Shown here: positions 19,600-43,120 of the stretch, piece after piece
Numbering within the stretch: position 1 is the stretch's first letter
Layout: every line of letters begins with the position of its first letter
Source: Podarcis vaucheri
Lineage: Eukaryota
Assembly (NCBI GenBank): GCA_965113315.1
Contig: OZ220368.1
Strand: one strand, 5' to 3'
DNA: 64,000 nucleotides
Program-made: the position numbers and the translations under genes
The notes under the pieces: model-generated
The model's input: only the letters and a program-made list of their open reading frames with translations
What the model was told of the DNA's origin: nothing
The model's database searches: none

Positions 19600-20340
19600 A
19601 GTAAAGAGCACTTAGCACCACCAGGCCCTTCGGCTCCCCCCACCCCACAAAAAACCCCACTTCAGTCGCCTCAAGTTAAAACGCGGCCCGACCCCACGCC
19701 CCCCTCCACATAAATCTCCCAACGCTACCACCCTATTGGCTAGCGCCAAAATCTCTGCCATCCCTATTGGCTTCCTCGCGACCGCGACACTCCCTCTCTC
19801 AGAAACCCCTACCCCTGGCAAGCGGGCAGCCTGGCTGTGCTCCGCTTCGCCCCCCCACCCACCCCACCCCCACAGCTCCGTCCTCCCGGTTTGCCCCCCC
19901 CTCCCTCGACACGCACCGTATAGTAGGAGAGCAGCCCCGCGTTGTAGTCGAGCACGAACCAGCGGTACTGCCAGCCTTTCATCACGTTGGTCCATTTACT
20001 CAGCGGGCCTTCCATGATGGACGCCATCTTGGGAGCCGGTAAGATGCCAAGCGGCCCCGCTGAAGCGAACGCCGGTCGCGCGGGCGGGGCTGAAGGAGAA
20101 GGAGGAGGAGCGGGGCGGGCTGGGGGGGAGGAGGAGAGAGGAGGGACGGAGAGAAAGAAAGAACGCGCGAGCGGGCGGGTGCGCGCGCACCGTCAGTGGG
20201 CTAGGCCTGACTGAGGCGGCGCGAGATTAAGAGGAGAGAGGCGACGGGCGCGGCAAGGGAAAAAAACACCGCACACACACACACACAGAGCCTACGCTGC
20301 TAACGAGAGGGAGGAGATAAAGACTGAGGGGGCGTGACTT
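19600..20340. promoter_or_regulatory. CpG island / OSBPL9 promoter
   Basis: GC- and CpG-dense; GGGCGGGG boxes; surrounds exon 1. Boundaries approximate. Confidence 0.85.
19917..20027 (-). CDS. OSBPL9: Oxysterol-binding protein-related protein 9, coding exon 1 (PH domain start)
   Basis: Translates [37 protein letters not shown], the recognisable ORP9 N-terminus; 111 nt followed by a GTGCGT donor; lies in a CpG island. Confidence 0.97.
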
Positions 20341-20427: not shown

Positions 20428-20887
20428 TATTGTTGTTTAGTCGTGTCCGACTCTTCGTGACCCCATGGACCAGAGCACGCCAGGCCCTCCTGTCTTCCAC
20501 TGCCTCCCGCAGTTTGGTCAGACTCATGTTGGTAGCTTCGAGAACACTGTCCAACCATCTCGTCCCCTTCTCCTTGTGCCCTCCATCTTTCCCAACATCA
20601 GGGTCTTTTCCAGGGAGTCTTCTCTTCTCATGAGGTGGCCAAAGTATTGGAGCCTCAGCTTCATGATCTGTCCTTCCAGTGAGCACTCAGGGCTGATTTC
20701 CTTCAGAATGGAGAGGTTTGATCTTGCAGTCCATGGGACTCTCAAGAGTCTCCTCCAGCACCATAATTCAAAAGCATCAATTATTCGGCGATCAGCCTTC
20801 TTTATGGTCCAGGTCTCACTTCCATACATCACGACTGGGAAAACCTTTGTCGGCAAGGTGATGTCTCTGCTTTTTAAGATGCTGTCT
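20428..20887 (-). mobile_element. BovB (RTE) LINE 3' fragment
   Basis: Encodes ...WTIKKADRRIIDAFELWCWRRLLRVPWTAR...LKLQYFGHLMRR-like BovB C-terminus; 3' end gggtcacgaagagtcggacacgactaaacaacaa; small internal deletions. Confidence 0.92.
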
Positions 20888-21380
20888 TAAAGTATAGCGA
20901 AGCATTTAAGGCTGCTGCCAGTATGGGCTTAAAGGTGCCGAAAGCTGTATTTCTGCTTGCACGTAGGTGACCTGGAAGAAAGCCTCGTTGAAACTCCTTT
21001 CGAGTGCATTCGGAGTTACAGAACTTCATTTGGGTGTCACTCTGAATAAAGACGGTGCTTATTATCCTGTTCCCACTACAGATGTGGAATTCACTCAGCA
21101 CTGACAAGTTTTCTTGGAACCCTGGAGCTGTAAAGGTATTTTGCAGACACTCTAGTTCTGATTGGATTGCCCTAATCTACTATGCTTTTCGTCTGCAGGG
21201 GTGTAGGAAGGGGGGGCGGGGGACAGGCTGACCCAGGTGCCATCATCAGGTGACAAATTGTCAAGGAACAATTACTGCCCTAATAGGGCGGTTCATAAAA
21301 AACTTTTTTTTTTAAATGCCGGCTCCAAAGGTCTTACCTTACTACACTAGGGATTATATAGCTATGTATGATATTTCATA

Positions 21381-21744
21381 GGGACGCGGGTGGCGCTGTG
21401 GGCTAAAGCCTCAGCGCCTAGGGCTTGCCGATCGAAAGGTCGGCGGTTCGAATCCCCGCGGCGGGGTGCGCTCCCGCTGCTCGGTCCCAGCGCCTGCCCA
21501 CCTAGCAGTTCGAAAGCACCCCCGGGGGCAAGTAGATAAATAGGTACCGCTTACCAGCGGGAAGGTAAACGGCGTTCCGTGTGCGGCTCTGGCTCGCCAG
21601 AGCAGCGTTGTCACGCTGGCCACGTGACCCGGAAGTGTCTGCGGACAGCGCTGGCCCCCGGCCAATAGATGTGAGATGGGCGCACAAACCCCAGAGTCTG
21701 TCAAGACTGGCCCGTTCGGGCAGGGGTACCTTTACCTTTACCTT
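21381..21744 (+). mobile_element. Sauria (Squam1) SINE, CpG-rich variant
   Basis: gggacgcgggtggcgctgtgg...(taccttt)n; 13-bp TSD tatgatatttcat. Confidence 0.93.
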
Positions 21745-23517
21745 TATGATATTTCATGCATATCAGTTAATATCTTGACCCTCCTCCACGAAAATAGCTG
21801 TTTACTTGGCCGTTTTCCTATGTCATGAAGGCTGAAATTTCAATTCAGTGGAGCAGGTCAAGCCTCCTAGCCGCCTGCTTTCCTATACAGCCAGTCCAAC
21901 TGGTGGCTCTGGCTGTCTGCTTCCTTCTCCTTACTCTCGGTTGTTCCCTTGTAGAATTCAGCAGAGAGGAGGATGGAGACAAGCCTAGAAAAGTGCAAAG
22001 TTGGATTGGGGCATGTTCTTTACCATGAAGCAAACTGTGCATTTGAGCAATTTTGCGATCATGTTCACTAAACAGGAAAGGAATGGTCAGAGTTCTTCTT
22101 GGCATGTGGCAATATGCTTCAGTACTACTGTTGATAGTTTCAAAGACCTTAAGGAATTCACATGATTTCTCAGACCTTTTGCTGAGTATTCCTGGGACTG
22201 CAGAGCTGGAATGGGGGGAAATCCCTATTAAAACTTTCTACTAACACCACTCCTCCACAGCTCGATCATATTTATATTAGAGGCCAAAACAACAAAGTTT
22301 TGTGGCATGTTAAAGACTGACAAATTTTATTATGCCATAAGCTTCCATGCATTACGTGTTGTCAGAATACTTGAGAATGTAAGCCATTTGTTCCTGTTTA
22401 ACTTTAGGGTGACAATCCTGTGCACACTCAGTGATTGTTAATTCATCTCTGAGAAAGTTTGCAAAGGATCAGAATACATCTTTCCCCAATGCCAGAATAA
22501 AACATATTGTTTGGAAGCTATTTTGGAAATCAGTGACAATTAGTGAACACTAATAGGGAACTTATGGTGAAGGGCTGCTTATAAATCAAATTAATAATAA
22601 CAACCAACATAATTTTAATGTGAAATGATTAATCAGCTCCTAAGCATGCTCAATGGAATTTGGTGTTTTTTTTAATATACTAAGGCTATAATCCTAAATT
22701 TGTGACTTACCTCAGAGTAAACATGCATGAGATTGGTCTGAACATTTAGCATGACTGGAATTACTCTGGATTTATACAAATTAGAGAAATACAGTGAATA
22801 GTCACCAACTATAACAGGCCTAGGAAACCTGAGCCCCAGCCAGTATGACCAATGAGCAGCGATGATAGAAGTGGTAATTCAGAAAAATCTGGCTGTCCTC
22901 TGGTTAGCCACCTGTGTTTGGTTGCAATCTTGTTTAGAAATTATATGGTAGAGGAGTGATTCTGCATAGTGATATAAAGCTTGCATCTGCTCTAATTCCT
23001 TTAGTTCAGAGATGACTAACCTGTGGCCCTGCACACATTGCTGGACTCCACCTACCCATCAGCCTTAATCAGTATTTGTGGATGATAGAAGTTACAGATC
23101 AGCAGCACCTGAAGGAACATAGTCTAGCTACTCCTGCTTAAAGTTGCAATCCTAGCTATGTCTACACAGAATTAAGTCCCACTGAATTAAATATGGCTTA
23201 CTGCCAGGTAAGTAGAATTAGGACTGCAGCCATAGTTTCTAATCAACTTCCTGCTCTTGTAGATTACTCATGCAAGGCTTTGCAGCTTTACTCCTTTTTA
23301 TGTGAATGGGATATACACACACTGATAACTAGCTGAATATGTGGAGTAGAGACCGCAACAACGACAATGTAGTCAAATTGTCATGAGCTGTCATGACCAG
23401 CTTTTTCTTTTCTTTTCTAGAATGCTGCAAACCACTTAGTTTGTTTTCAAAAGGGAATTTAGTGTGGGAATGGTAACATTTCAGTTGGGATTGAGGCTAT
23501 TTTGACTGAGATGAATA

Positions 23518-23788
23518 CAGTGGTGCCTCGCAAGACGAAATTAATCTGTTCCGCGAGTCTCTTCGTCTTGCGAAGCACGGCTATTAGCGGATTAGCGGCT
23601 ATTAACGGCTTAGCGGCTATTAATGGCTTAGCGGCTTTAAGAAAAAGGAAACGAACTCGCAAGACGTTTCGTCTTGCGAAGCAAGCCCATAGGGAAATTC
23701 GTCTTGCGGAATGACTCAAAAAACGGAAAACTCTTTCATCTTGCGCGTTTTTCGTCTTGCAAGGCATTCGTCTTGCGAGGTACCACTG
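23518..23788. mobile_element. Tc1/mariner (Tigger-like) MITE, family A
   Basis: TA|cagtggtgcctcgcaagacgaa...ttcgtcttgcgaggtaccactg|TA; internal 18-bp ttagcggcta repeats. Confidence 0.88.
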
Positions 23789-24035
23789 TACAGTATATTT
23801 ACTTACAAAAACAAGGTGAGCTATTATGATGTACTGAATTCTAAAAAGTTCTGCTTGCTACGTTCTCAAATATATTTCAAGTGGCAGAATGCTAACAATA
23901 CTTTCAAAGAGTAGTCGAGTAGGAAGGCAATACACTTGCTGGGTGTGAATTGATCTGAATTAGATCCAGACACCTGTGTCTTCAGAATCCATTTCCTTTG
24001 AGACATTCCAGGGAGTTTCTGTGCTAGCGCAATTG

Positions 24036-24054
24036 CGTGGTCCCTTCTGATTGG
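24036..24054 (-). promoter_or_regulatory. ER stress response element (ERSE-I, CCAAT-N9-CCACG)
   Basis: Plus strand CGTGG-tcccttctg-ATTGG is the exact reverse complement of the consensus, ~204 bp upstream of the calreticulin-like ATG. Confidence 0.7.
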
Positions 24055-24257
24055 TCCTTGTAGCTCAATTATTCATGGATTCTAACCAGTGGAAAAGACC
24101 CTTCTGTTCAGTATGATTATCAGTGTGATGACTGTTGTGGTTGTAGATTAGGAGAAGTGGGACAATATTTCAGAGGGGGTGTTACTATAGTCCTCTTAGT
24201 GCAATTTATAGAAGCCTCCTACCATTTTCAGAACTCTAAGTTCCTGTGAAACCAGTA

Positions 24258-24408
24258 ATGCAGCTGATTTACTTAGGGACCTTCTTGATAGGACTGGTAT
24301 TTGGGGAACAAACTGACAATGACAATGATGATAGCCCTTCTACTATGTTAGAGACACCACAGCATACAATAATAAAGGAGTATTTTAGGGAAGAGTTTGA
24401 TGATGAAG
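24258..24408 (+). CDS. CALR4: Calreticulin paralogue (CALR4-like) exon 1: signal peptide, acidic extension, start of N-domain
   Basis: In-frame TAA at 24237, ATG at 24258: MQLIYLGTFLIGLVFG-EQTDNDNDDSPSTMLETPQHTIIKEYFREEFDDE(G)|gtaagt. YFREEFDD aligns with CALR YFKEQFLD; phase 1 matches exon 2. Gene symbol rests on OSBPL9/EPS15 synteny. Confidence 0.88.
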
Positions 24409-26235
24409 GTAAGTGATACTTTGCTGTTTCTCTGTTCTGGAAGGAAACGGTTGACTTCCAAATCTTCTTTCATTTATGTAGCCTTACTCTAAAGAGTTGC
24501 ATTCTTGTTTGATTTCATTTTTTTTTACTGTTTAATAATAAAATTAATTGATAAAATACTATGAAATATCTATTTTGTATGGTATCCCTTCTACTAAGCT
24601 ATCAGTACATTCAGTACCACTACAGAAAAAAAATAAAGAATAGAAGCATGAAAGAGAAGACTGACCTTTTGCAATTTCCCCCCAAGTTTAGGAAAACTAA
24701 TAATTAAAAGCAGTTGTCTTGCAAATTTTGTGAGGCTGCTGTCCTGTTCTGCTGTCCTACCTGGCAATATGTCTCACTGAATTCAGTGGCCGTTACATCT
24801 GAGTAGACATGCATAGGATTTCACTGTGAGTGATGCATGGAAGGAACAGAGATAAACCAGTTGAACATGAGGAGTCAGTCCTGATGCATTTGGAATCCTA
24901 GAGCACAGCTAATTTATAAAAGGATGCATCCAAAGTTAATAGTTTCATCTGTTTAAATATAAAGAAAAGGTAACCCAGATAGAAATAGTTTTTACTGTCT
25001 ATTCTGAAACATTCAGAAGCAACTGATGTCCTGATATAGTATAGTGTGTTTCCCTGCATAAGAGATTGCACAGCTTTAAAATCTCTGCTATGTATCCTAA
25101 TTTCAATATCTTTCAATATGTCTTCTTAAGAACTCCTAAGCAGACTGCAATTTTATTTATAGTGCTGCTCTATATGGAGCTAAAGGCAAATTCATTCACA
25201 GTACTAGGTTTCTGGGTTTGGTTAAAAGTTTGATTCTGGTTAATCATTCTTGAAGGTTTTTAGTGCTGTCTCCTAGGAAGAGAGAGTATTTTACATGTCC
25301 TCATCTACCTCCCATACAATTTCCTCCCTTCTTCCAATTTCTTATTTCTATCCCATGGGAAGATCAGTACAGGTGTTATTATCATTTATTATTGCGCCTG
25401 TTTGTACCCTTTCTTTAGAAGACATACTAAATGACACCAGTCTTGTACTGAAAGTCCATTACAAAATGGCTTGAAAATTAATTCAATCTGGTTTATATTA
25501 CATTTGTTTGAATTTTGAGCCCTATGTTCAGTGTTATAAACATGACATAAACCAGGCAAATCACAAACATGATTCAACATGTAGCGAGTGGTCTCTTGGG
25601 ATCATTGAGCAGTTTTCTCTAGCTCCAGATGGAGTTAAATATAGGCTTTTGTGATATTCAGCTAAGCATTCTTGAGTAAAATACTTTTTGTAGGGTTGTT
25701 TTTAACCAAATGTAATTCAAGATATATCAAGAATGCCTTTTTAGGTTTGCTGCCAGGTTTTATGCCTATGATGAAGGTTTCATCACTTGAATGATCTTTA
25801 AGAAAGACGTAGGTGCTCTAGTATGAGTGCTCTAGTATTATTCCTTGTCAGTGGCCACATTCAAATCTCACTCTAAACCACAGTATAGTATGATGAGACT
25901 GAGCAATGGTTTGCCTCTGATACATATGCTCTTTCCCTTCCTTTTCTTCCTCTGGCACAGTAGCACAAGGGGAAGTTCAGAATCTGTTTGCTTCTGCTTT
26001 TGCTTAACCACAGCTTGTTGTGTTACGCAGATTGAAAAAATGTGGTTAATGCTTTGTTTTGTTGGTTTAAAACAACTCTCCTTCAAATGATGAAGTTATT
26101 TTGTTGTTGGTTTAAACAAACCATAGTTAACATTGACCATGGTTCAGGGTTTGGATTAAATATCTGGAAAATTACTGCTTGTTATATGGCTGTTAAGTCC
26201 ATGTGTCGTGTAGCCATGAGTTAATTTGTATAGTA

Positions 26236-26461
26236 CAGTGGTACCTCAGGTTAAGAACTTAATTTGTTCTGGAGGTCCGTTCTTAACCTGAAACTGTTCT
26301 TAACCTAAAGCACCACTTTAGCTAATGGGGCCTCCTGCTGCCGCTGCGCTGCCACTGCATGATTTCTGTTCTCATCCTGAAGCAAAGTTCTTAACCCGAG
26401 GTACTATTTCTGGGTGGGGAGTGGCTGGGGAAACCCAGCCAGATGGGCGGGGTACAAATAA

Positions 26462-26508
<47 letters not shown>

Positions 26509-26558
26509 GGGTTAGCGGAGTCTGTAACCTGAAGCATCTGTAACCCGAGGTACCACTG
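26236..26558. mobile_element. Tc1/mariner MITE, family B, with nested L2 tail
   Basis: TA|cagtggtacctcaggtta...taacccgaggtaccactg|TA; insert at ~26416-26507. Confidence 0.88.
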
Positions 26559-26656
26559 TATATCCTAAAATATTAATTCTATTTTACATAACGTGAAATA
26601 ATTGTTGCATGTTATTGTTTTGCTATACCTCATTGCTACTTCTTTTGCTTTTCCAG

Positions 26657-26758
26657 ATGAATGGGAGAAACGATGGGTTCAATCTAAACATAGATCTGAT
26701 TATGGTAAATTTCGTGTTGCATCAGGAAGGTTTTATGGAGATAGAGAAAAAGATAAAG
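26657..26758 (+). CDS. CALR4: CALR4-like exon 2
   Basis: ttttccag|AT GAA TGG...GAT AAA G|gtaaaa; (D)EWEKRWVQSKHRSDYGKFRVASGRFYGDREKDK; 102 nt as in CALR exon 2. Confidence 0.95.
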
Positions 26759-28093
26759 GTAAAATAATGCATTCTCCCATCCCCCAGGTTGTGAAAAATG
26801 AGATTTGTGACTGAATGCATGCCCTCATTCACTTTTATTCCATTATTGACACAATATTGGCTAGTAATAAAACATCTGCATAACTGTCTATAAAACATCT
26901 ACATAACTAGTGGTGGGCTAGAGAGCAGGGTTTCTGCATCTGAGCAAATTTGTGTCAGTGCAAATAGATCCTACAAGTAATGTGATCCCACACATTTAGC
27001 TCTTTAAAAGTCAAACCAGCACTTTAAATTGAGCCCATAAATAGTCAGTCAATGTAACTGGTGTAGAATGAGTGTAATATGATCCAATATGCCCAAATCG
27101 CACGAGATCCTGGTAGCTGCGTTCTATACCAGTTGGATTTTCTGGGCCACATGTAAAGGCAGATCTATAGAGAGAGCATTACAGTGGCCTAGTCCAGATG
27201 TAACCAGTGAGTGTGTTACTTTTTTCCTAAGATAGGGTCAAGTTAAAATGACAAAAGGCACTCCTAGCCACCTGTGCTAGTAAAGATGATAAATTGGATC
27301 CCTGTAGATTTAAGGCAGGAGTGGGGAACTGGATCTGACCAGTAGGAGGCTACCCACCAGTTGTTTTCCCTGACATTGTTAAAAGAAGAAGCTGATCAGT
27401 AGTTAGAGCAACCACTTTTGAAGAAGCTCTTTCAGTGACTGTCAGCTGATTGGAGCTGGGAGCATGCCTTCAAAGAGACTGTTTATTGGTGGTTATAGGG
27501 AGTCCCTTCAAAGTCTCTGCAGGGGGGGGGGAAATGCTCCTAAAAACAGCATTTTCCCCTCTACCTAGAAAGTGACATGGGTTTAAAGCACTTCTTCCAG
27601 TGCTCTGAATTCAGACTGCTTCCTCTGGGGGGGGGGGGAAGCATGCTATTGCAGCGAATGCCATCTGATTCTTGGGACTGACTGCACTTTGAAGCTCCAA
27701 TGATCAGCTGATTGTCAGCTGCACAGGGCTTTCTGTTCAAGCACCAACAATCAGTGGTTATAGGTGCTTGAACTTTTGTTTTCCCTTTTTCCAGACATCT
27801 CCATTTTCTCTTTGTTTATTTCCCGATTAATGTACAGGCTCTGTAAATTGTTTCTTGACTAATATTTATGCAAGTTTCTAACTTCCCAGAGTAATCAACA
27901 GTGGTATTTTGTATATTGGTGGTCTTCTCTTGTTAACAGTATAACTGGCAAGAGGTTATTTAATATTCATATCCTACATAACGCTAGACAGTCTTTGCGG
28001 TTATATTATTATAACCATAGTAAGGACAGGATTTTGTGAAAGTACAATAAGTTGTTTAAACCATAGTTCTAGATCTTTGATTTAATTTTACAG

Positions 28094-28297
28094 GTCTGAA
28101 GGCAACTGAAGACACTAAGTATTATGCAGTGTCAGCAAGGTTTCCACCCTTCAACAATGAAGGTCAGACGTTAGTGCTTCAGTATACAGTAAAATATGAC
28201 CAACATGTTGATTGTGGTGGTGCCTATGTTAAACTTTATTCTGCAGACCTGGTTCAAGAGGTTATGAATGAAGATTCTGAATATTATATTATGTTTG
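28094..28297 (+). CDS. CALR4: CALR4-like exon 3
   Basis: tttacag|...|gtaagt; GLKATEDTKYYAVSARFPPFNNEGQTLVLQYTVKYDQHVDCGGAYVKLYSADLVQEVMNEDSEYYIMF; 204 nt; calreticulin signature motif. Confidence 0.96.
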
Positions 28298-29430
28298 GTA
28301 AGTTCTCAACATGTCTTATTAGTCAGCAGTCAAAGCATATCCATTTTTACAGTGCAATCCAAGAGAGAATTGGGCTTAGCACTATAAGGAAATTTCTGTT
28401 TTCATATTTTTTGAGTCTACATCACTGTATATATCAGTGGCTGCACACAATTCTGTGCCATGACTTATGATTTAGTCAACTATCTGGTGCAGAAAGCTCA
28501 AGAGCGCCTACCATACTCTTCCGGTAGTCAAATGAGGAAACACACAACAGAGCAGTTGGCTTATCATTACACTGGAATCAGCTCTTCTGGTTTGTTTTTC
28601 TCCAGAAAACCAAAATGTGAAGCCAAGTTCTTGACTTCCCAAACATTGTTTATTTGGAGAGAAAAACCCCAAGAATTGGTTTGGGGATAATGTTAAGCTC
28701 AATGGTTTGTTTCCCCACTCAACTAAGGAAGAAGCAGAGTGGGAGCACATGGGATGCATGCACCAGCATGCACCTTGTGCACTGGTTAGCTTACTAAACC
28801 ATAATTAATAGCTCAGTATTATGGGCAAACACAGCCAGTTTTTGCTTCCTTATGTTTTGCAAAATATATTCAATGAGCTGACAAGGTTGCTGGATCAGGG
28901 TGAAGTCTTCCAGGGAGCTTACAAGCAGGGCATGAAGTCAACAGCTCGCCTCTGCTGCCCCATTGTATGGTGCCAACATTTGATATTGTCTCTGAAGATT
29001 TAATTTAGCTATACACAGCATCAGACCATGAACATAAATCTGAACTTTTTAAAAGCTACTGAAAGTAGTAGCTATCAACCCTTTTGACATCTTTTTTTAA
29101 AACTTCCTGGCAATCAATGTGTCTAACACTTTGCTTATTACTTACAATTTTTGAAAACTGCTCTTTCATCTCCCATGTATGTTGTCTTGAGAGTTAGAAG
29201 TAGTGGGATTAAAATGGTTTTAAAATATTAAAATGTTGGTTGCAAGGGACAGGAAGTAAGTAAGTCACCTTCCACGTTTGGAGAAGAAGAAGAAGAAGAG
29301 GAAGAATAAAGTACTATTAACAGCAATTTCTAAATCAGTGGTCAAACTATCATTAAATGACTTATATTTGTGCAGGTGGAATTCTGATCCAAGTCAATTG
29401 GGTTTTTAGAGCACTGTTGTTTTCTCCTAG

Positions 29431-29525
29431 GTCCAGATATATGTGGAGAAGACAAAAAGATAGTGCAGGTTATCTTCAACTATAAAGATGATTATTATTT
29501 GATCAAAAAAAACATCACATGCGAG
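29431..29525 (+). CDS. CALR4: CALR4-like exon 4
   Basis: ctcctag|...|gtatga; GPDICGEDKKIVQVIFNYKDDYYLIKKNITCE; 95 nt. Confidence 0.95.
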
Positions 29526-29672
29526 GTATGATCAGTATTTTTTTGGTATCTGAGAAGCATTGTTGATTTCTAAACTTTGTTGCTAGTTTTCCTCTACTAA
29601 TTGCATTTTTTGTATCTTTCTGTCTTGCTAAAATTCTACTTTCCACACACAAGCAACAGTGAAAAACCCATA

Positions 29673-29951
29673 CAGTGGTGCCTTGCAAGACGAAATTAAT
29701 CCGTTCCGCGAGTCTCTTCGTCTTGCGGTTTTTTCGTCTTGCGAAGCACGGCTATTAGCGGCTTAGCGGCTATTAACAGCTTAGCGGCTTTAAGAAAAAG
29801 GAAACAAACTCGCAAGAACTCGCAAGACGTTTCATCTTGCGAAGCAAGCCCATAGGGAAATTTGTCTTGCGGAACAACTCAAAAAACGGAAAACTCTTTC
29901 GTCTTGTGCGTTTTTCATCTTGCGAGGCATTCGTCTTGCGAGGTACCACTG
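29673..29951. mobile_element. Tc1/mariner MITE, family A
   Basis: Second copy of the 23518 element; TA TSDs and TIRs. Confidence 0.88.
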
Positions 29952-30762
29952 TAGCTGAAGTCTGGGTCAAGTAGTGTTTTTGAAACTAACAGTAACATAT
30001 ATTACAATTATGTTGGCGAGTAAGGGATAGTTTAACTATGGTTTAATGTTAATGAAAAGTGCTAGTGCATGCTGCTCAAAAAGTCCTCAACTGATTCACC
30101 GCAACTCATTCACTGTTGCTCCTGACCACACTGCACCAGGACCAACAAGCTACAAGCATTGGCATGTTATATTATCTAAATCAAGATTGTAGTTTGTTTG
30201 GAGAGAACATGAGCAGCAGGTTTGTTTCAGGGAAATCAACTACAAGTCTGGATTTCACATTCCATTTCTTTTGTTGATACGTATTGTTACTGGGACCATG
30301 CAAGCATGCTGGAGCTTTGTTCTGCTTTGCTCTTCCCTGGACTGAGTGTGGTGCAGCAACTAAGCCAAAGTTTTGCTTAATGTGTCCTCTGAACCCAGGA
30401 TCATGGTTAAGCTATGAACCCAGTATCATGGTTAAGTTGTAGCCAAGAACAAACATTGGCTGATGGGCACCAATCATTATGGTTGCCACTCTTGCATCCT
30501 AGGCACCATTTACTTTTGACACACAACCCAAGAAGCAAGGGAAATAGCTCTCACCAACCAATAATAAGTACCATGGCATGTCCTCAATTTTCTGGCCTCC
30601 AAACTCTTCAAGCAGTGATTGAGTAGATAATCAGTATGCCATTTTTTTCATTTAGTTTATATTCTGTTGCAACATTTAACAAGGAAAACCATCAGTCAGT
30701 TTGGAATATGAGAAAAGAACTCTCTACTTATGTAATAATCTTTATTATTTTTCTTTTTCGAG

Positions 30763-30972
30763 ACCGATGACTTTACCCATCTCTACACTTTGATACTACG
30801 TCCAGATTTAACATATGAAGTGAAAGTTGATAATTATGTTGCTGAGGCTGGCTATCTAGAAGATGACTGGGACTTCCTTCCTCCAAGGAAGATAGTTGAT
30901 CATGAAATGGCAAAACCTGACTACTGGGATGAAAGGGAGCTTATTGAAGATCCCATGGACAAGAAACCAGAT
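30763..30972 (+). CDS. CALR4: CALR4-like exon 5 (end of N-domain, start of P-domain)
   Basis: tttttcgag|ACCGATGAC...|gtaaag; [70 protein letters not shown]; 210 nt. Confidence 0.95.
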
Positions 30973-32037
30973 GTAAAGTTTCAGTATAATGGTTTCTCTT
31001 TCTATATAGATATATATGTACATTAAAGCTGTCTACTTCCCCAGTTGCATTCTGTCCACTGACCATCTCTTGTTGTCTCAGTTGAAGTCAGTGGGTGTTG
31101 CAGCTGTGCTTATAATTCTATGATTTGCTCCAACAACAGTCTGATATCCATCATTTCCTTTCTATTATTTCTATTATTAAATAATTCTTACTTCAGTCAA
31201 TTTCACAATGGTAGCTAATTATTACTTCCATTTAGCAAATGGAGGAGCTGAGGCAATATATGATCATTTACTTGCCTGGGGCTGAGTTGGGTTAAACTCT
31301 AAAATCAATTCTGCACCTCAGTGACATTTGTCTTCGCCTTTACAGACAAATGTCTGCACCCAAGCAAACATTTATACATTCTTTATACACAAAGCAGCAT
31401 ATGTCACTTTTGCCAGGACTTCTTACTTCACCTGACCAGATGAGGGCATAGATGGCAAATACCCAAGTCTCATAGATAGTTCCCCATTCTGGACTCAAAC
31501 CCCAGCACCTCAAGCCCACAGATAAGGATAACATCAAAACAAGCCAATTAACTTATATCAAAGGAAGTGAGTATGAACATACATGAGCTCATTGTTACAT
31601 CAACTACCAATTAATTGTGGGGTTATATTGACTACCAAGATGGTGTTTGCAGTGCTTCTAGAACAGTTCACCTTTGGTTCAACACAAAGTTCAATACAGT
31701 ATATGTCTATCACGGGATTAATAAAAACAAATTTCCATGCCTGGTAGTTGTTGCAGTGAATTTTGTTGAATGCCACAGAACCTAAAAGCTTGTTAAGTGT
31801 GGTAACATATGAAATGCTAGATGATAACAGAAAACAATATAATAACCAATACTTATTTTTATGTATTTATTTACATTTATATTTTGCTACTCTTCCAGCA
31901 CGGAACTCAACTTACTAATTGGTCAATGTGATATTAAATGAGCAAGCATTTTAATAAACTGTCAGGATTATCTTGCTGCTAAAATACATGTTTGAGAAAA
32001 CAATCTTTATTGATTATATGAATGCATACTGTTTTAG

Positions 32038-32151
32038 GATTGGGATCAGCCAGAAAGAATTCCTGACCCAAATGTCACGAAGCCAGATGACTGGGATGAA
32101 GAAATGGATGGAGAGTGGGCACCACCATCGGTTCCAAACCCGGAGTACAGA
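32038..32151 (+). CDS. CALR4: CALR4-like exon 6 (P-domain tip)
   Basis: gttttag|...|gtaagc; [38 protein letters not shown]; 114 nt. Confidence 0.96.
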
Positions 32152-33891
32152 GTAAGCTTGGTATAGGTCTGCATAATAATAAATGCAGAGACTTAGATGG
32201 TAAACAGTAGGGGTCGTATACCCAGAGTAGACCCATTTAAATGGATAGATTTAAGTTAGTCAAGTCCATTGAATTCAGTAAGTCTCTGAGTATGACTTAG
32301 TCCAGGGATTGTCTACCTGGTGCCAAGTTTGTTTCCCTTGAGCATCTTTGGTTTTTGGTTTTGTTTTCAAAAAATAGGCATTTCCTTTACCCATGGAGGA
32401 ACTTTTCTAACGGGTGGGGTTTCTCAGTGATATTCTGTGTTGAGAGAGATGTATTTTTTTTGGGGGGGGAGTCACACATATGGCATTTGTGTGAGGTCCA
32501 GGGATGAGGGAGCAGCAGTGACTGCACTCTCTAATCTTGTCTTATGCCATACCGCCATAGCAGCCATTTTGTAACAGGCACCCACAGCACTTCCTCAGAA
32601 TTCAAAGTGTGCTCACTGGTCCAAAAAGGTACCATGTTTAACCTGAGGCATTTTATCTTACTACCTACTCTCCTGTTCAGTCTTTCTGAATCTACCTTCA
32701 TTTGGCTTTGCCTGTATTTCTCAAGTCCCCCATCCTTAAATGCCATCTCTTGTACCAGTATCTCCCTTCAAGCAGCTATATCCCATCACTTACTAAGCCC
32801 TCAAATAGGTACTGCTTTCTCTGTTTTTCTTGCTGCTCTCTTTTTGACCCACTGGTTTGGATTCCTCTTTCTCTTTCTCTCTCTTTCTTTACCACTTCCA
32901 AGTAGTTGCTGTCTCCAGTCTGCTTTTCATCCTCTCTACTGACTGTTGAAATCATTGTCTATGCTTTTCTTCCATTACCACAATTGTCACATAGTATTTT
33001 TAAGTCCTTGCAGAACTTTTACCCACCTTATATTATCAGTTTCAACCCTTTAGTTTTGTAGCTTTTAGTTTTGCAGCTCAAATCCGTGGTTGTGTCTCCA
33101 CTCTCACTGCTTTTTCCATCACTTCTTGCTTTCTCCATTCTATTCACACCTCATCAGCTCCCCCCGCCCTCCTGTTTCCATTCCTGTCCCCCTCTCCCAC
33201 ATGTATTCAGGGGTGTGTGGAGGGGGCGGTCTGCCCCGGGTGCCACTCTAGGGGGGGGGTGACAAGATGGCCCCTGCCTCCCCCCAACTGTAGAGCGGCC
33301 AAGGGCGTGTGCAGTCCATATGGGCTGCCGTTCTCATGCACTGTCCATATGGGCTGCTGCGCGTGCGCACGTACAGCTGCATCCCGTGCAGTCGTCACAC
33401 ACGTGCAGTCCATACAGGATGCTGCACATGCACACTCCGTACAGGCTGCCCCACCCCAGGTACCGGAGAGGGTTCCTCCGCCACTGCTTGTATTATCTTC
33501 AAATTAAGACAAAATCTGTAGCTCTCCAGTTGTTGCTAGACTCCAACTCCCATAAGCCCCAGCCAACATAGTATGGAAGGGATGTTGAGAAGTGGGAAAC
33601 CAACAACATATGGGCGGCTACTTCCCCATCCTAGTGAAATCATTGTTAAAGTACAAGTCAATGGTATATAATTAGTTTTACTTATTGTAAAATAAAGCTT
33701 CTGTTGGCATTATCACTATGAAAGGCCCACACTCAAAACTGTAAATAATGTGTCAGTACATATTTAGCAAATGATGATAATACATTCCATATTGTTATTT
33801 TTCTTTCACTAGACTTAGCAAATATTTATTTTGACTAAATTGGGTTTGGGGGGAAATAAACTTCAAGCTTGTCTCAATTGTTCTTTTTTAG

Positions 33892-34035
33892 GGAATTTGG
33901 AAGCCCCGTATAATCAAAAATCCCAATTATAATGGCATATGGGTTCAGCCATTAGTTGATAATCCAGAATACACACCTGATCCTAATCTTTACAAGTATT
34001 TCAACATCAGTGTCATTGGTTTAGAAATTTTACAG
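33892..34035 (+). CDS. CALR4: CALR4-like exon 7
   Basis: ttttttag|...|gtatgt; GIWKPRIIKNPNYNGIWVQPLVDNPEYTPDPNLYKYFNISVIGLEILQ; 144 nt. Confidence 0.96.
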
Positions 34036-34211
34036 GTATGTATTTTATAGAGTTTTCAGAAATAATTCCTTAACTGGAAAGATAATTCTTATTACAGAGT
34101 CTAGTTGTATTCTGTACCATTATGAGGGAAAAGCTGTCCAATTTTCTAATTTGAATCATTCACAGGAGAAAAATAGCATTAGCAACCCATTCATTTTGAA
34201 AATATGATATA

Positions 34212-34441
34212 CAGTGGTACCTCAGTTTACAAACTTAATCTGTTCCAGAAGTCCGTTCTTAAACCGAAACCATTCTTAAACCGAGGTGCGCTTTCGCTAA
34301 TGAGGCCTCCTGACGCCGGTGCACTTCCACCATTCGGATTCCGTTCTTAGACCGAGGTAAAGTTCATAAACCGGGACACTACTTCCGGTTTTAAACCGAA
34401 TCGTTCTTAAACAGGACTGTTCTTAAACCGAGGTACCACTG
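34212..34441. mobile_element. Tc1/mariner MITE, family B variant
   Basis: cagtggtacctcagttta...taaaccgaggtaccactg TIRs. Confidence 0.82.
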
Positions 34442-34805
34442 TGTTGTGTTTCCCATTTGCAGCATTTGCAATTAATTCAAACGACTGCATGGTCATCTAT
34501 AGAATCTGCTTCAGTGGTGATCTTCACACCATGTGCTCTAGAGTAGGATTATTGTGGAGTAGATAATTTGAGAAGAATGGCCTCTGATATTAGAAGATTA
34601 TGATATAGCTGGATTGATGGGATGACAAACCTGTGTACTGGCTTTGAGTATGAACGCAATGTTAAATCTGAATTTATTAGAATAGGAGCACGCTAAATTG
34701 GTAGGCGCAGTGGAACTTACTTTTGACTTACATGTATATTGTTGAAATGTGGGGCTTTTAATGCAAAGCCTGTGACATCTGCAATCTGAGAATCATTTTT
34801 CATTA

Positions 34806-35039
34806 CAGTGATACCTCTGGTTACGAACTTAATTCGTTCTGGAGGTCCATTCTTAACCTGAAACTGTTCTTAACCTGAGGTACCACTTCAGCTAATGGGG
34901 CCTCCCGCTGCCACCGCCGCACGATTTCTATTCTCATCCTGAGGTAAAGTTCTTAACCCGAGGTACTACTTCTGGGTTAGCGGAGTCTGTAACCTGAAGC
35001 GTATGTAACCTGAAGCGTATGTAACCCGAGGTACCACTG
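34806..35039. mobile_element. Tc1/mariner MITE, family B
   Basis: Uninterrupted copy; TIRs and TA TSDs. Confidence 0.88.
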
Positions 35040-35477
35040 TAAAAGGCTCCAGATACCGTAACTAGATAAGCCTTCCTGATACAGGGAAACAGAACCATTT
35101 TGAATCTGGCTTCTAGTCTTCAGAAAACGAGACAGTTTCCTAAAGAAGAAATGGGGGCAATCACCTAATTACGTACCCTTTGCATGTCATGGTTGAATTC
35201 CAACCCGTTTTACCTAGTCCATGGCAAATAGAAATTGAATTATTTTTTTAATCAAAATTCTACAGAATGAAAACATAAACACAGTAGAATTAATATAAAC
35301 TTAATATAGATATGAAGCAACAGCTTTGGGACTGTATATATTTGCTTTCATCACAAAATGCTGAATTTCTGGTTGAAGGAATTGGTTAATATATTATGCA
35401 TGTGTGAGCTAGGAAGTTTTCCTCAAAATAACAATGAAATATTATATAGGCACGCTGCCATTTTCTATTGCTTGTTC

Positions 35478-35551
35478 ATATTTTATATTATTTTAGTATA
35501 CAGCAGGAAATAATATTTTATATTATTATTTTAGTATACAGAAGGAAATAA
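35478..35551. repeat. Tandem duplication of a ~35-38 bp AT-rich unit
   Basis: atattttatattattttagtatacagcaggaaata occurs twice, imperfectly. Confidence 0.8.
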
Positions 35552-36165
35552 ATTATTTTAAATAAATAGATAGCCACTTAATACAGGTTTGAGAAGAAAA
35601 TAATGCAGCTTTGTACAATCTCACTTCTAGAAACCATGTATCACCCATTCTTGCAGCATTGTATTGTAGCTATAGGGCAGGATTCACATAACTAGCCCCG
35701 TCAGCAGAAGCCCTGCACAAGGACTTCAACTTGCGCAATGGGGTTCCGTCCTCCTCTCCCTGTCAGCCCCTTAAAATTGGATGGAAGGAAGTGAGGAAAA
35801 CCCCCAGAACAGCATGTGGTGGGAGAAGAGAGGAGCTTGCTCTGTCTCACATTGAATTCCACCCATAGGTTTTGGGATTTTTTTGTATCACCTTTAATCA
35901 TTGTATCCAATGTTGTGCCCAATTTATATTGTGAGCTTTTTCTGGTGAAGCACCATTCTTGTTGGTATTAAATTCAGGCAGCGGTCATAACTCCATTACC
36001 TAATAATAAATGTCTCTGAATTCAACAGGTCTTACTTCTGAGTACACATAGTTGGACTTCCATTATCACAAGTATATATGGCTCACATATATGGCTCACA
36101 AATCTAGCTATATTGTGTTTACTTCAGTAACTCATTTTTCCCTTCTACCTTTTTAATTCCAACAG

Positions 36166-36258
36166 GGAAAGTCTGGCACAATCTTTGACAATTTTCTTAT
36201 CACAAATGATGAACAATATGCTGAAGATGCTGGGAATGAAATGTGGGGTCCCACATTT
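36166..36258 (+). CDS. CALR4: CALR4-like exon 8
   Basis: ccaacag|...|gtaagt; GKSGTIFDNFLITNDEQYAEDAGNEMWGPTF; 93 nt. Confidence 0.96.
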
Positions 36259-36916
36259 GTAAGTAACGTAATCACCATACAAGAGTGGCTGCATTGAGAT
36301 GGTGCAGAAGGGCTTTTGCTAGTATACCTGCACAGCTCCAGGTGTCCAGGCATTTGTATAATTACCATAAGAGCCTTGAACCCTGCAGCAGTCTCGCCAC
36401 TACATTCTGCACTACCTGGTTCAAGACCAGGCTCAAGGACTTCCCCACATAGAGTATACTGCAGTTATCAAGTCTTGAGGTTACTTATGCATGGACTCCT
36501 GTTATCATGATCCAGTTATTGTCATAGCTGGTGTACCAGACAAAGTTGGTAAAAGGCATTCCTAGCAGAGGTCACTTAGGCCTCTAACCACAGATTTGTA
36601 TCCAGGAATACCAGTACCTGGTTCTGATTGCTTTATGAAGCACCTGAGCCCTACTGCATTGGCAGAAGAATCCTCCTGTGGATTGATCCAGGCTGTTGGT
36701 TGCTGTTATCATTAGCTCATAAGAGAATTCCTCTAGCAATACAGTAAGGCTCAGATGCTTCATAAGGTAAAACAGGACCAGGATTCAATGGGGTATCTTT
36801 GCTGGTCTGAGGTACACTAAGGAAAATGTGGGTGAACAGGGGGTAAGTTGTAAAGCAAGCATAATTTGTGAGGGTACACAATATTCCATTACTATTCAAG
36901 AAATATGCCAAGTTCC

Positions 36917-36917
<1 letters not shown>

Positions 36918-36965
<48 letters not shown>

Positions 36966-37257
36966 TTATTATTTATACCCTGCCCATCTGGCTGGGTTTC
37001 CCCAGCCACTCTGGGCGGCTTCCAAAAGAATATTAAAATACTATTATACATCAAACATTAAAAGCTTCCCTAAACAGGGCTGCCTTCAGATGTCTTCTAA
37101 AAGTCTGGTAGTTGTTGTTCTCTTTGACATCTGGTGGGAGGGCGTTCCACAGGGAGGGCGCCACTACTGAGAAGGCCCTCTGCCTGGTTCCCTGTAACTT
37201 GGCTTCTCGCAGTGAGGGAACCGCCAGAAGGCCCTCGGTGCTGGACCTCAGTGTCTG
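36918..37257 (-). mobile_element. L2-like LINE 3' fragment with (TTA)n tail
   Basis: Peptide LRSSTEGLLAVP...RAFSVVAPSLWNALP...FRRHLKAALF; tail merges into the (AAT)15 microsatellite at 36918-36963. Confidence 0.85.
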
Positions 37258-38171
37258 ATCCTTACACATATCTGCTTGATACTATATCTTGTTAAGTTCA
37301 GTCAGTCTTGTTCGAGCAAGCTGTAATCCTGTGCACCCTTACCTAGAAGTAAATCTTGTTGAACATAGTAGGATTTACTTCTGTGTAAACATGAATAGAA
37401 TTATTAGACTGCACATCCTGCAGAGTTTAGTTAACCATAACTAGCACTAACAGGATTCATAAAATCAATACTATACCTACTGTACATAATATTTTTATAC
37501 ATAGAAGTAGCCAGTAAAGAACTGTAGAAATGCATGCTTCCATTATTACAGTGTAAGAAACAAAACTGATGTAGTTCCAAACATATTAAGATCTGCTTGA
37601 AAAACACAAGCTTTAGGTGTTAAGGGAAGCTAGTTAAATTCTTTTGAAATTATGAAGAACTCACTGAAAACTAAGGAATAAATGTACAAATGTAGCTGTA
37701 CAGATTGCACAAAAATAACAAAAAGCCAAGCAAGGTATATACAACACTAAAGAAAGTGACAAAAATATCTGAGGGTGGGAAAGTTTTCAGTGTTGCATCA
37801 CGTCTGATTATTAGGAATTTTCATAGTGACTTTAGATTGGGGGGAAATACCTTCAGAGTTAAGGCTTGAACCTACATTTTCAGTGTGAGGCCCTCTTTCT
37901 CACTGACTCTTTGCCAAGAAGGAAAGGGAGGCAGATTTCAAAAACAAATCTCTTACGGAAACTTATAGAAGTAAATGTCTGCATTTCATATTCTGGCTGT
38001 GACATTTACATTTTTTAAAAATTGACTCGAGGTAATGTATTCCTATAACCTTCATTTGGTCTTAACACATGGAATACTATTGAATAAGTTATTTGCAGCT
38101 TATTTATATTAATATTTAACATGGTTTTTCATCTTGCCAACATGCTTTACAATTCTTGTTTGAATAAACAG

Positions 38172-38306
38172 GAGAGAGAATGGAAGAGAAGACAGGGACA
38201 AGATGTTGTGTATAAAAAAATTAATGAAAATGAGGAACCGAAAGGAAAAGAAGGCAAGAAAGAAAAAAGGAAGAAAAAAGATCGCAATGTTAAAGATGAG
38301 CTCTAA
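38172..38306 (+). CDS. CALR4: CALR4-like exon 9 (C-tail with KDEL, stop)
   Basis: aaacag|GAGAGAGAATGG...; EREWKRRQGQDVVYKKINENEEPKGKEGKKEKRKKKDRNVKDEL*; phase 0 with exon 8. Total CDS 1248 nt = 415 aa. Confidence 0.92.
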   Translation, partial: EREWKRRQGQDVVYKKINENEEPKGKEGKKEKRKKKDRNVKDEL

Positions 38307-40370: not shown

Positions 40371-43120
40371 AATCATAGAATCATAGAATCATAGAGTTGG
40401 AAGAGACCACAAGGGCCATTGAGTCCAACCCCCTGCCAAGCAGGAAACACCATCAGAGCACTCCTGACATATGGTTGTCAAGCCTCTGCTTAAAGACCTC
40501 TAAAGAAGGAGACTCCACCACACTCCTTGGCAGCAAATTCCACTGTCGAACAGCTCTTACTGTCAGGAAGTTCTTCCTAATGTTTAGGTGGAATCTTCTT
40601 TCTTGTAGTTTGGATCCATTGCTCCGTGTCCGCTTCTCTGGAGCAGCAGAAAACAACCTTTCTTCCTCCTCTATGTGACATCCTTTTATATATTTGAACA
40701 TGGCTATCATATCACCCCTTAACCTCCTCTTCTGCAGGCTAAACATGCCCAGCTCCCTTAGCCGTTCCTCATAAGGCATCGTTTCCAGGCCTTTGACCAT
40801 TTTGGTTGCCCTCCTCTGGACACGTTCCAGTTTGTCAGTGTCCCTCTTGAATTGTGGTGCCCAGAACTGGACACAGTACTCCAGGTGTGGTCTGACCAGA
40901 GCAGAATACAGTGGCACTATTACTTCCCTTGATCTAGATGCTATACTCCTATTGATGCAGCCCAGAATTGCATTGGCTTTTTTAGCTGCCGCGTCACACT
41001 GTTGGCTCATGTCAAGTTTGTGGTCAACCAAGACTCCTAGATCCTTTTCACATGTACTGCTCTCAAGCCAGGTGTCACCCATCTTGTATTTGTGCCTCTC
41101 ATTTTTTTTGCCCAAGTGCAATACTTTACATTTCTCCCTGTTAAAATTCATCTTGTTTGTTTTTGCCCAGTTCTCTAATCTGTCAAGGTCGTTTTGAAGT
41201 GTGATCCTGTCCTCTGGGGTGTTAGCCACCCCTCCCAGTTTGGTGTCATCTGCAAATTTGATCAGGATGCCCTTGAGTCCATCATCCAAGTCGTTGATAA
41301 AGATGTTGAATAAGACCGGGCCCAAGACAGAACCCTGTGGCACCCCACTAGTCACTCTTCTCCAGGATGAAGAGGAACCATTGATGAGCACCCTTTGGGT
41401 TCGGTCAGTCAGCCAGTTACAAATCCACTGAGTGGTAGCATAGTCAAGACCGCATTTTACCAGCTTCTTTACAAGAATATCATGGGGCACCTTGTCAAAT
41501 GCCTTGCTGAAATCAAGGTAGGCTACATCCACTGCGTTCCCTTCATCTACCAGGCTTGTAATTCTGTCAAAAAACGAGATCAGGTTAGTCTGACATGACT
41601 TATTTTTCAGAAATCCATGCTGACTATTGGTGATCACAGCATTCCTTTCTAGGTGCTCACAGACTGTTTGCTTAATGATCTGCTCCAGAATCTTCCCTGG
41701 TATTGATGTCAGACTGACTGGGCGGTAATTATTTGGGTCCTCTCTTTTCCCCTTTTTGAAAATAGGGACAACATTTGCCCTCCTCCAGTCTGCCGGGACT
41801 TCGCCTGTTCTCCAGGAATTCTCAAAGATGACTGCCAGTGGTTCTGAGATCACATCTGCCAGTTCTTTTAATACTCTTGGATGCAGTTCATCTGGCCCTG
41901 GAGACTTGAATACATCTAAACTAGCCAAATATTCTTGTACTATCTCCTTAGTTATTCTGGGCTGTGTTTCCTTTGCTGAATCATTTGCTCCAAATTCTTC
42001 AGGTCGGGCATTGTTTTCTTTATCGGAGAAGACTGAGGCAAAGAAGGCATTGAGTAGTTCAGCCCTTTCTGTGTCCCCTGTTTGCATTTCACCATCTTCT
42101 CCTCTGAGTGACCCCACAGTTTCTTTGTTCTTCCTTTTGCTACGAACATACCCATAAAAGCCTTTTTTGTTGCTTTTAACCTCTCTAGCAAGCCTGAGTT
42201 CATTCTGTGCTTTAGCTTTTCTGACTTTGTGTCTACACGTGCTGGCTATTTGTTTGAATTCCTCTTTGGTGGTTTCCCCCCTTTTCCATTTTTTGTACAC
42301 ATCCTTTTTTAATCTTAATTCAGTTAAAAGTTCTTTAGATAGCCACCCTGGCTTCTTTAGGCACCTTCCATGTTTCCGTCTCATTGGTATTGCCTGTCGT
42401 TGTGCTTTTACTATCTCCCTCTTAACAAACTCCCAGCCATCATGAACTCCCTTTCCTTTAAGTATTGCTGTCCATGGGATCTCACCCAGCACTTCCCTAA
42501 GTTTTATGAAGTCGGCTTTCTTAAAGTCAAGAAATTGAGTCCTAGTATGCTTGGCTGCTCCTTTCCGCTGTATAGTAAACTTCAGAAGAGCATGATCACT
42601 CGCGCCTAATGATCCTTCCACATCTACCCCACTAACCAGGTCATCAACATTGGTTAGGACCAGATCTAAAATGGCTGTTCCTCTTGTTGCTTCTCCCACT
42701 TTCTGGACAATGAAGTTGTCTGCAAGGCCAGTGAGGAATCTGTTTGACCTTATGCTCTTGGCTGAGTTTGACGTCCAACAAATATCCGGGTAATTGAAGT
42801 CCCCCATTACTACTATCTCCCTTCCTTTTGCATGCTTGGCCATCTGTTCCAGGAAGGCATCATCTATGTCCTCCGTTTGGCTTGGGGATCTATAGTAAAC
42901 TCCCACAATGAGGTCTCTGTTATTCTTCTCTCCCTTAATTTTGACCCAAATGCTCTCACTTTGGCTTTGAGGTTCTAAATCTTGGATCTCTTCACAGGTA
43001 TACACATCCCTGACATATAACGCCACTCCTCCTCCTTTCTTGTCTGGTCTGTTTCTTTGAAATAGATTGTATCCCCCCAAAATAGATTGTATCCCCCCAA
43101 AATAGATTGTATCCCCCCAT
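40371..43120 (-). mobile_element. CR1 LINE, 5'-truncated, with uninterrupted ORF2 (partial APE endonuclease + reverse transcriptase)
   Basis: 875-codon ORF 40453-43080 with [26 protein letters not shown] and FADD motifs; 3' end is a (ATTCTATG)n CR1 tail. Confidence 0.96.

Follow-up and report, generated by a model that had tools for sequence, protein, structure and literature searches.

An exact ERSE-I match ahead of the signal exon of a lizard CALR4 gene, a probable UPR-responsive promoter element

Does CALR4 of a lizard, Podarcis vaucheri, have a UPR-inducible promoter of its own? The question is raised by 19 nucleotides in the stretch of DNA analysed here (hereafter the window; 64,000 bases). 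On the minus strand, positions 24036-24054 read exactly CCAAT-N9-CCACG (ERSE-I), with both half-sites exact and a spacer of exactly 9 nt; the element is inverted relative to CALR4, the plus strand reading CGTGG-N9-ATTGG. An earlier note, made from the letters of this DNA, had claimed a perfect ERSE about 204 bp before the ATG of a CALR4-like gene, outside any CpG island. This description is confirmed: the element is separated by 203 nt from the ATG of exon 1b (24258), and the surroundings (23800-24300) have a GC content of 0.40 and a CpG o/e of 0.20. The two halves are as follows.

24050-24054 (with flanks, 24047-24056), minus strand: CCAAT half, predicted NF-Y site
24036-24040, minus strand: CCACG half, predicted ATF6(N) site, containing a CpG amid CpG-poor DNA

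Counting both strands, the window holds this one exact match in its 64,000 bases and, even with up to one mismatch allowed, no further ERSE-I site. From its 121 CCAAT and 28 CCACG half-sites, 0.026 matches would be expected per window, or 1.2e-4 per 300 bp. Dinucleotide-shuffled windows (n = 100) carried a mean of 0.06 matches, with at least one match in 6 of the 100, and Markov simulations of orders 1 to 3 gave 2, 2 and 3 matches per 6 Mb (1-1.5e-4 per 300 bp). When spacers of 0 to 60 were considered, just one CCAAT/CCACG pair besides the ERSE was present in the window. At about 1e-4 per 300 bp, and with the window's sole match at one mismatch or fewer, the view that such a match is unlikely by chance stands; multiple testing costs little here because an ERSE is the first motif to look for before a calreticulin gene. 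The CCAAT half also has extended flanks of the NF-Y type, found at 4 of the 121 CCAAT sites in the window. There were no matches in the window to ERSE-II (ATTGG-N-CCACG), UPRE (TGACGTG(G/A)) or ERSE-26 (CCAAT-N26-CCACG), no AP-2 motif in 23790-24410 and no Rfam match over 18000-40000. An XRE-like 7-mer on the plus strand (24033-24039) overlaps the CCACG half and, with seven such 7-mers in the window, is unremarkable.

Three other features lie close to the element.

24028-24037: palindrome of 10 bp that shares 2 nt with the ERSE, at chance level
24207-24214, plus strand: TATA-like box, 7/8 match, at chance level
23515-23790: MITE-like insertion with 24-bp terminal inverted repeats and an 87% copy at 29670-29953

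The palindrome and the TATA-like sequence, which had been pointed out previously (the latter at about 24205), are both there, but neither carries weight as evidence. The palindrome is one of 198 perfect 10-bp palindromes in the window (9 of them with a CpG), and 3% of all 19-mers overlap one; for the TATA-like box, 1.07 matches at 7/8 are expected per 200 bp. Its third base probably differs in two snakes (Crotalus tigris and Python), going by model extensions that map weakly.

A transposon origin of the ERSE was considered and rejected within the reach of self-BLAST, as the element lies outside every repeat that it detected; the MITE-like insertion, the nearest repeat, ends 246 nt upstream. 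Repeats found by self-BLAST make up 11% of the window (20432-20887, 21379-21743, 23515-23790, 26234-26560, 29670-29953, 34192-34442 and 34804-35041) and presumably include an RTE/Bov-B-like fragment, a Sauria-SINE-like element and several MITE-like elements with terminal inverted repeats. Elsewhere, an open frame of 902 codons on the minus strand (40453-43161) contains endonuclease- and reverse-transcriptase-like text, which we take to be that of a young CR1-type LINE.

The gene downstream of the ERSE has nine exons (24258-38306), bounded by GT donors and AG acceptors, which join into an uninterrupted ORF of 415 aa ending in KDEL. Its exons and the first exons of its neighbours are listed here.

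24258-24408, plus strand: CALR4 exon 1b, with the ATG and a signal-peptide-like hydrophobic stretch
26657-26758, plus strand: CALR4 exon 2
28094-28297, plus strand: CALR4 exon 3
29431-29525, plus strand: CALR4 exon 4
30763-30972, plus strand: CALR4 exon 5, with an unusual GAG acceptor
32038-32151, plus strand: CALR4 exon 6
33892-34035, plus strand: CALR4 exon 7, carrying D317E and W319L
36166-36258, plus strand: CALR4 exon 8
38172-38306, plus strand: coding part of CALR4 exon 9, ending in KDEL-stop
19917-20027, minus strand: OSBPL9 coding exon 1, in a CpG island
48462-48488, plus strand: EPS15 coding exon 1, in a second CpG island, a synteny marker

Exon 1b matches the models of P. lilfordi, Lacerta and Zootoca. 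All 365 residues encoded by exons 2-9 are identical to RefSeq XP_028589341.2 of Podarcis muralis (the same protein is found in P. raffonei), the whole product is identical to the P. lilfordi model at 413 of 414 positions, and PF00262 was found on all CALR4 protein matches. The Lacerta and Zootoca models begin four codons earlier (MIPV; region 24246-24260), and because the window has GTG at that start, translation is taken to begin at the second ATG. Three further ATGs lie upstream (24075, 24113 and 24128), each at the head of a short frame that has ended by 24151. The GAG acceptor of exon 5 (30760-30763) is of a rare type, and four annotated isoforms in Podarcis, Lacerta and Anolis skip this exon. 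The earlier note had taken the ERSE as support for a functional gene; this conclusion is better founded on the intact ORF and its conservation in squamates, for which the motif is a far weaker basis.

That the gene is CALR4, and not simply CALR4-like, is supported by both its tree position and its neighbours. It sits between the first exons of OSBPL9 and EPS15, each within a CpG island; these two names were assigned from the N-terminal peptides, and the gene order in mammals is OSBPL9-CALR4-EPS15. Mouse Calr4 and Osbpl9 are reported to share a 3.3-Mb interval (PMC7561370), and human CALR4 is described as a unitary pseudogene (PMC2864566). Trees were computed from 76, 42 and 41 named proteins selected from 120 + 120 matches or cluster members listed, with unnamed and redundant rows excluded. 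In the 41-protein tree, the squamate genes join a clade (99/97) that contains the named mouse CALR4 and related mammalian and amphibian proteins, and they stand separate from CALR and from the CALR3 of fish and lungfish; forcing them together with tetrapod CALR was rejected (AU p 0.002). The 42- and 41-protein trees were inferred under LG+G4, a model with greater susceptibility to long-branch error; a quick tree of 76 proteins under the C20 mixture model recovered the same grouping of squamates with CALR4 (99). Since the stem branch of squamate CALR4 is long (0.79-0.96) and the trees are without amniote CALR3, synteny bears part of the CALR4 assignment. Ray-finned fish ‘calr’ falls on the CALR4 side (93/93 in the 41-protein tree; SH-aLRT 90 in the 76-protein tree), but this link is insecure, an alternative placement still being allowed (AU p 0.19). 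A correct placement would make the calr genes of zebrafish and medaka orthologous to CALR4; the trees are without a medaka sequence, and we equate medaka CRT1 with ‘calr’ from its naming.

The main weakness of the ERSE finding is the location of the transcription start, for which the locus offers a second first exon.

20014-20038, plus strand: distal first exon, coding portion (MMDAILGA), followed by a GT donor at 20039 and running antisense over OSBPL9 exon 1

All RefSeq models seen for P. muralis and P. raffonei start at MMDAILGA about 4 kb upstream and splice directly to exon 2, so that exon 1b is skipped and the ERSE is intronic in these distal-start models. The product of the distal exon joined to exon 2 has a hydropathy of 0.48 and no signal peptide, compared with 2.42 for exon 1b. 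Among the 40 squamate species with models, 28 have the signal exon, 15 the distal start, 9 both and 6 neither, and in 19 of the 40 exon 1b is present with no distal model seen, all of these being automatic gene models in which read support and source tissues are not visible. A start far from the element, which had been named beforehand as a finding that would speak against it, is thus what the P. muralis and P. raffonei models give, but signal-exon models are annotated in 28 of the 40 species. In mouse, a signal-exon isoform likewise exists alongside isoforms with other first exons.

The two first exons may also be joined in one transcript. Because there are acceptors at 24231, 24255, 24276 and 24291, transcripts that start at the distal promoter could include exon 1b as an internal exon. 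The last three are in frame with the distal exon, and the product obtained through 24276 retains the hydrophobic stretch (2.22 versus 2.42 for exon 1b); the plausible acceptor at 24231 would leave a short upstream ORF ahead of the ATG. Splicing of the distal exon into exon 1b is annotated in three models (Salvator, Thamnophis X1 and Crotalus horridus). As separate observations, the distal start is annotated from geckos to snakes, giving sense-antisense overlapping first exons at the OSBPL9 start codon, and inverted CCAAT boxes occur behind the distal exon at 19739 and 19770, 31 nt from each other. In the interval that leads from the distal exon to the ERSE, 23395-23482 contains a strong pyrimidine tract, an AG at 23420 and a GT donor at 23473 and resembles a 52-nt cassette exon, whose match to the extra exon of Thamnophis is weak.

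How old the DNA between the ERSE and exon 1b is was read indirectly, from the spurious N-terminal extensions of 19 squamate models and 15 exact-segment tests. One extension maps clearly.

24079-24171, plus strand: non-coding DNA, 25 nt past the ERSE, with a homologous counterpart ahead of the gene in Phrynosoma

Residues 1-31 of the Phrynosoma model align here ungapped with a minimum of 23 base changes in 93 nt; the next best of 127,816 positions requires 34 changes (mean 53.1, sd 3.9). The Crotalus tigris extension maps weakly (17 vs 19 changes) and falls, together with that of Python (one weak segment, 11 vs 12, three other segments being missed), within 24185-24244. A Lerista extension maps weakly to intron 1 (20 vs 22), those of Phrynocephalus, Thamnophis X3, Crotalus X2 and Rhineura X2 gave no mapping and that of Tiliqua was tied. 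The Phrynosoma and weak snake mappings indicate that the interval which begins 25 nt beyond the ERSE and runs up to the ATG, the part covered by mapped extensions and clear of the ERSE itself, is old and collinear with that of other squamates. Alignability is no proof of function, nor is it specific to promoters, given the weak mapping of Lerista to intron 1.

Taking these observations together with the literature, we consider it probable that the ERSE serves a proximal promoter as its NF-Y/ATF6 element and increases full-length CALR4 when the ER is loaded, with vomeronasal neurons as the probable setting. By analogy with established ERSE biology, NF-Y would occupy the CCAAT half, and cleaved ATF6 or XBP1s would bind CCACG solely with NF-Y nine bases away. 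With the UPR on, the exon 1b promoter would then produce more full-length, ER-targeted CALR4. To judge from mouse, the main site of use would likely be V2R vomeronasal neurons, where physiological ER stress is high; outside them the CpG-poor promoter may be mostly closed, and transcripts would come from the OSBPL9 island with the signal exon skipped. As reported, NF-Y binds CCAAT and ATF6(N) binds CCACG just jointly with NF-Y (PMC5890977, PMC1475745), mutation of both ERSEs abolishes the activity of the human CALR promoter (bioRxiv 10.1101/2021.02.01.429116) and all three medaka calreticulins are lowered in ATF6 double knockouts (PMC3639050, PMC12702678). Because the three medaka calreticulins are ATF6-dependent and fish calr falls in the CALR4 clade, the ‘own’ promoter of the lizard gene would be inherited rather than new, and the ERSE was probably kept from an ancestral vertebrate calreticulin promoter, not newly gained.

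For the vomeronasal setting, Calr4 is reported to replace Calr in mouse V2R neurons, with V2Rs not retained (PMC4194052). Mouse Gnao1/V2R neurons are enriched in Calr4 (log2FC 1.97) and Hspa5 (log2FC 2.14) in the data of PMC11643622, but only slightly in Atf6 mRNA (log2FC 0.11), which counts against the promoter reading; a further report has Atf6, Xbp1 and Hspa5 higher in V2R neurons (PMC13354959). In stressed PC12 cells, rat Calr4 is listed as differentially expressed, with no direction given, along with classic ATF6 targets (Hspa5, Hsp90b1, Calr, Sel1l and Herpud1; PMC12115778). Squamates are described as having many V2Rs and few V1Rs (PMC3590772). The literature also holds evidence against the promoter reading. 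The lizard ERSE is a single copy, whereas well-studied targets are reported to use several (PMC5890977). Motif presence also predicts poorly, as the human genome is reported to contain 535 ERSE-I, with most ERSE matches away from ER genes (PMC5890977), and of 652 zebrafish genes in which half-sites are conserved, under a looser motif definition, 475 were unmoved by nAtf6 (bioRxiv 10.1101/2021.03.10.434889). Finally, mouse Calr4 is not a plain UPR target, since AP-2epsilon is reported to drive it while Calr goes down (bioRxiv 10.1101/2022.01.14.476379).

Three other accounts of the element have to be weighed against a proximal promoter. The ERSE might be an intronic enhancer for the CpG-island promoter 4 kb away, serving the distal CALR4 exon, OSBPL9 or both, with exon 1b internal. 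The distal start in 15 of 40 species from geckos to snakes would fit this account, as would the frame of the distal exon with 24255, 24276 and 24291 (including the hydrophobic product through 24276), the three models that join it to exon 1b and the CCAAT boxes at 19739 and 19770. We nevertheless regard it as unlikely: most distal models omit exon 1b and have no signal peptide (hydropathy 0.48), 19 of 40 species show exon 1b with no distal model, MMDAILGA simply reads the conserved OSBPL9 start in antisense, and the improbability of the ERSE by chance rests on its proximity to the ATG of exon 1b.

An ERSE that acts for the most part as an NF-Y site, tissue-specific or constitutive, under the control of a lineage factor of the AP-2epsilon kind or of another bZIP and with little acute stress induction, is quite unlikely in our estimate. 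Good NF-Y flanks, the single copy and the non-island promoter would all suit such a site, as would the tracking of AP-2epsilon by mouse Calr4, opposite to Calr (bioRxiv 10.1101/2022.01.14.476379), and the small induction of CALR by thapsigargin reported in HepG2 (PMC1475745), but it leaves unexplained why CCACG should be perfect, keep its CpG and stand at exactly N9, when spacers of 0-60 yield one other pair, and the AP-2 motif is absent from 23790-24410. A match that arose by chance, or a relic no longer in use, is likewise quite unlikely. Matches did occur in 6 of 100 shuffled windows, and most genomic ERSE matches are reported not to lie near ER genes (PMC5890977); against this stand the approximately 1e-4 for the 300 bp ahead of a named ATG and the expectation that a decayed element should have lost its CpG where the o/e is 0.2-0.3. 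We thus retain the NF-Y/ATF6 promoter element as the preferred reading.

The product that such a promoter would raise differs from mouse CALR4 at its glycan site and tail. We checked 12 glycan-site, disulphide and P-domain positions, chosen partly after PMC4194052; squamates keep 10 and change D317 to E and W319 to L. Of 37 squamate proteins, 35 carry L at W319 and the remaining two are without this region, whereas all 37 non-squamate tree rows have W. E238, D241, W244 and W302 (mature numbering) are reported as chaperone-critical residues (PMC4194052), and this set, kept by mouse Calr4, is not fully kept in squamates, where the P-domain tip is retained and the W302/W319 position is L. The tail is short and charge-neutral, with 16 acidic and 17 basic residues in the last 61. 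These residues suggest that squamate CALR4 may have altered glycan binding, through W319L and D317E, and little capacity for calcium storage.

A more elaborate scheme, which we hold to be doubtful as a whole, would combine these observations into a UPR promoter switch. At rest, the locus would give signal-less transcripts from the OSBPL9 island; ER stress caused by V2R expression in a vomeronasal neuron would then, through ATF6 or XBP1s acting on the ERSE promoter, bring in the signal exon; the product, a squamate-specific calreticulin without the glycan-site tryptophan and the acidic tail, would fold the large V2R repertoire of squamates rather than retain it; and CALR4 would be the orthologue of fish ‘calr’, its ERSE kept since the early vertebrate duplications.

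We found no report of an ERSE at a CALR4/Calr4 promoter in the open-access literature. If functional, the element would be the first direct cis-regulatory link between the UPR and CALR4 within the open-access literature searched. It would concern a chaperone reported to let V2R pheromone receptors exit the ER, in animals whose vomeronasal repertoire is V2R-dominated. It would also show that the current Podarcis annotation misses the productive first exon (exon 1b). The test is simple, requiring one 19-bp element and one reporter.

Both the ERSE and CALR4 are of already-known kinds, and a textbook element before a member of its textbook target family is plausible rather than surprising. The mammalian ERSE-I of CALR, HSPA5 (GRP78) and HSP90B1 (GRP94) is likewise an exact CCAAT-N9-CCACG upstream of an ER chaperone gene. 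In comparison with these promoters, the lizard ERSE is a single copy in GC-poor, non-island DNA, is intronic in the annotated P. muralis and P. raffonei transcripts and is inverted relative to its gene, a comparison that does not extend to the positions and orientation of the human CALR ERSEs. Another close counterpart is mouse Calr4 (NP_001272824.1), the V2R-compatible calreticulin of basal vomeronasal neurons, which belongs to the same clade, lies in the same neighbourhood so far as seen and, as in squamates, has a signal-exon isoform beside other first exons. The two proteins are 57% identical over 364 aa, with a long squamate stem between them; squamates have W319L and D317E where mouse keeps both residues, and the squamate tail is shorter and charge-neutral. 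Ray-finned fish ‘calr’ (medaka CRT1) is placed with CALR4 by our trees, though not securely as an orthologue (AU p 0.19), and is reported to be lowered in ATF6 double knockouts (PMC3639050, PMC12702678); unlike squamate CALR4, it retains W319, D317 and the acidic tail.
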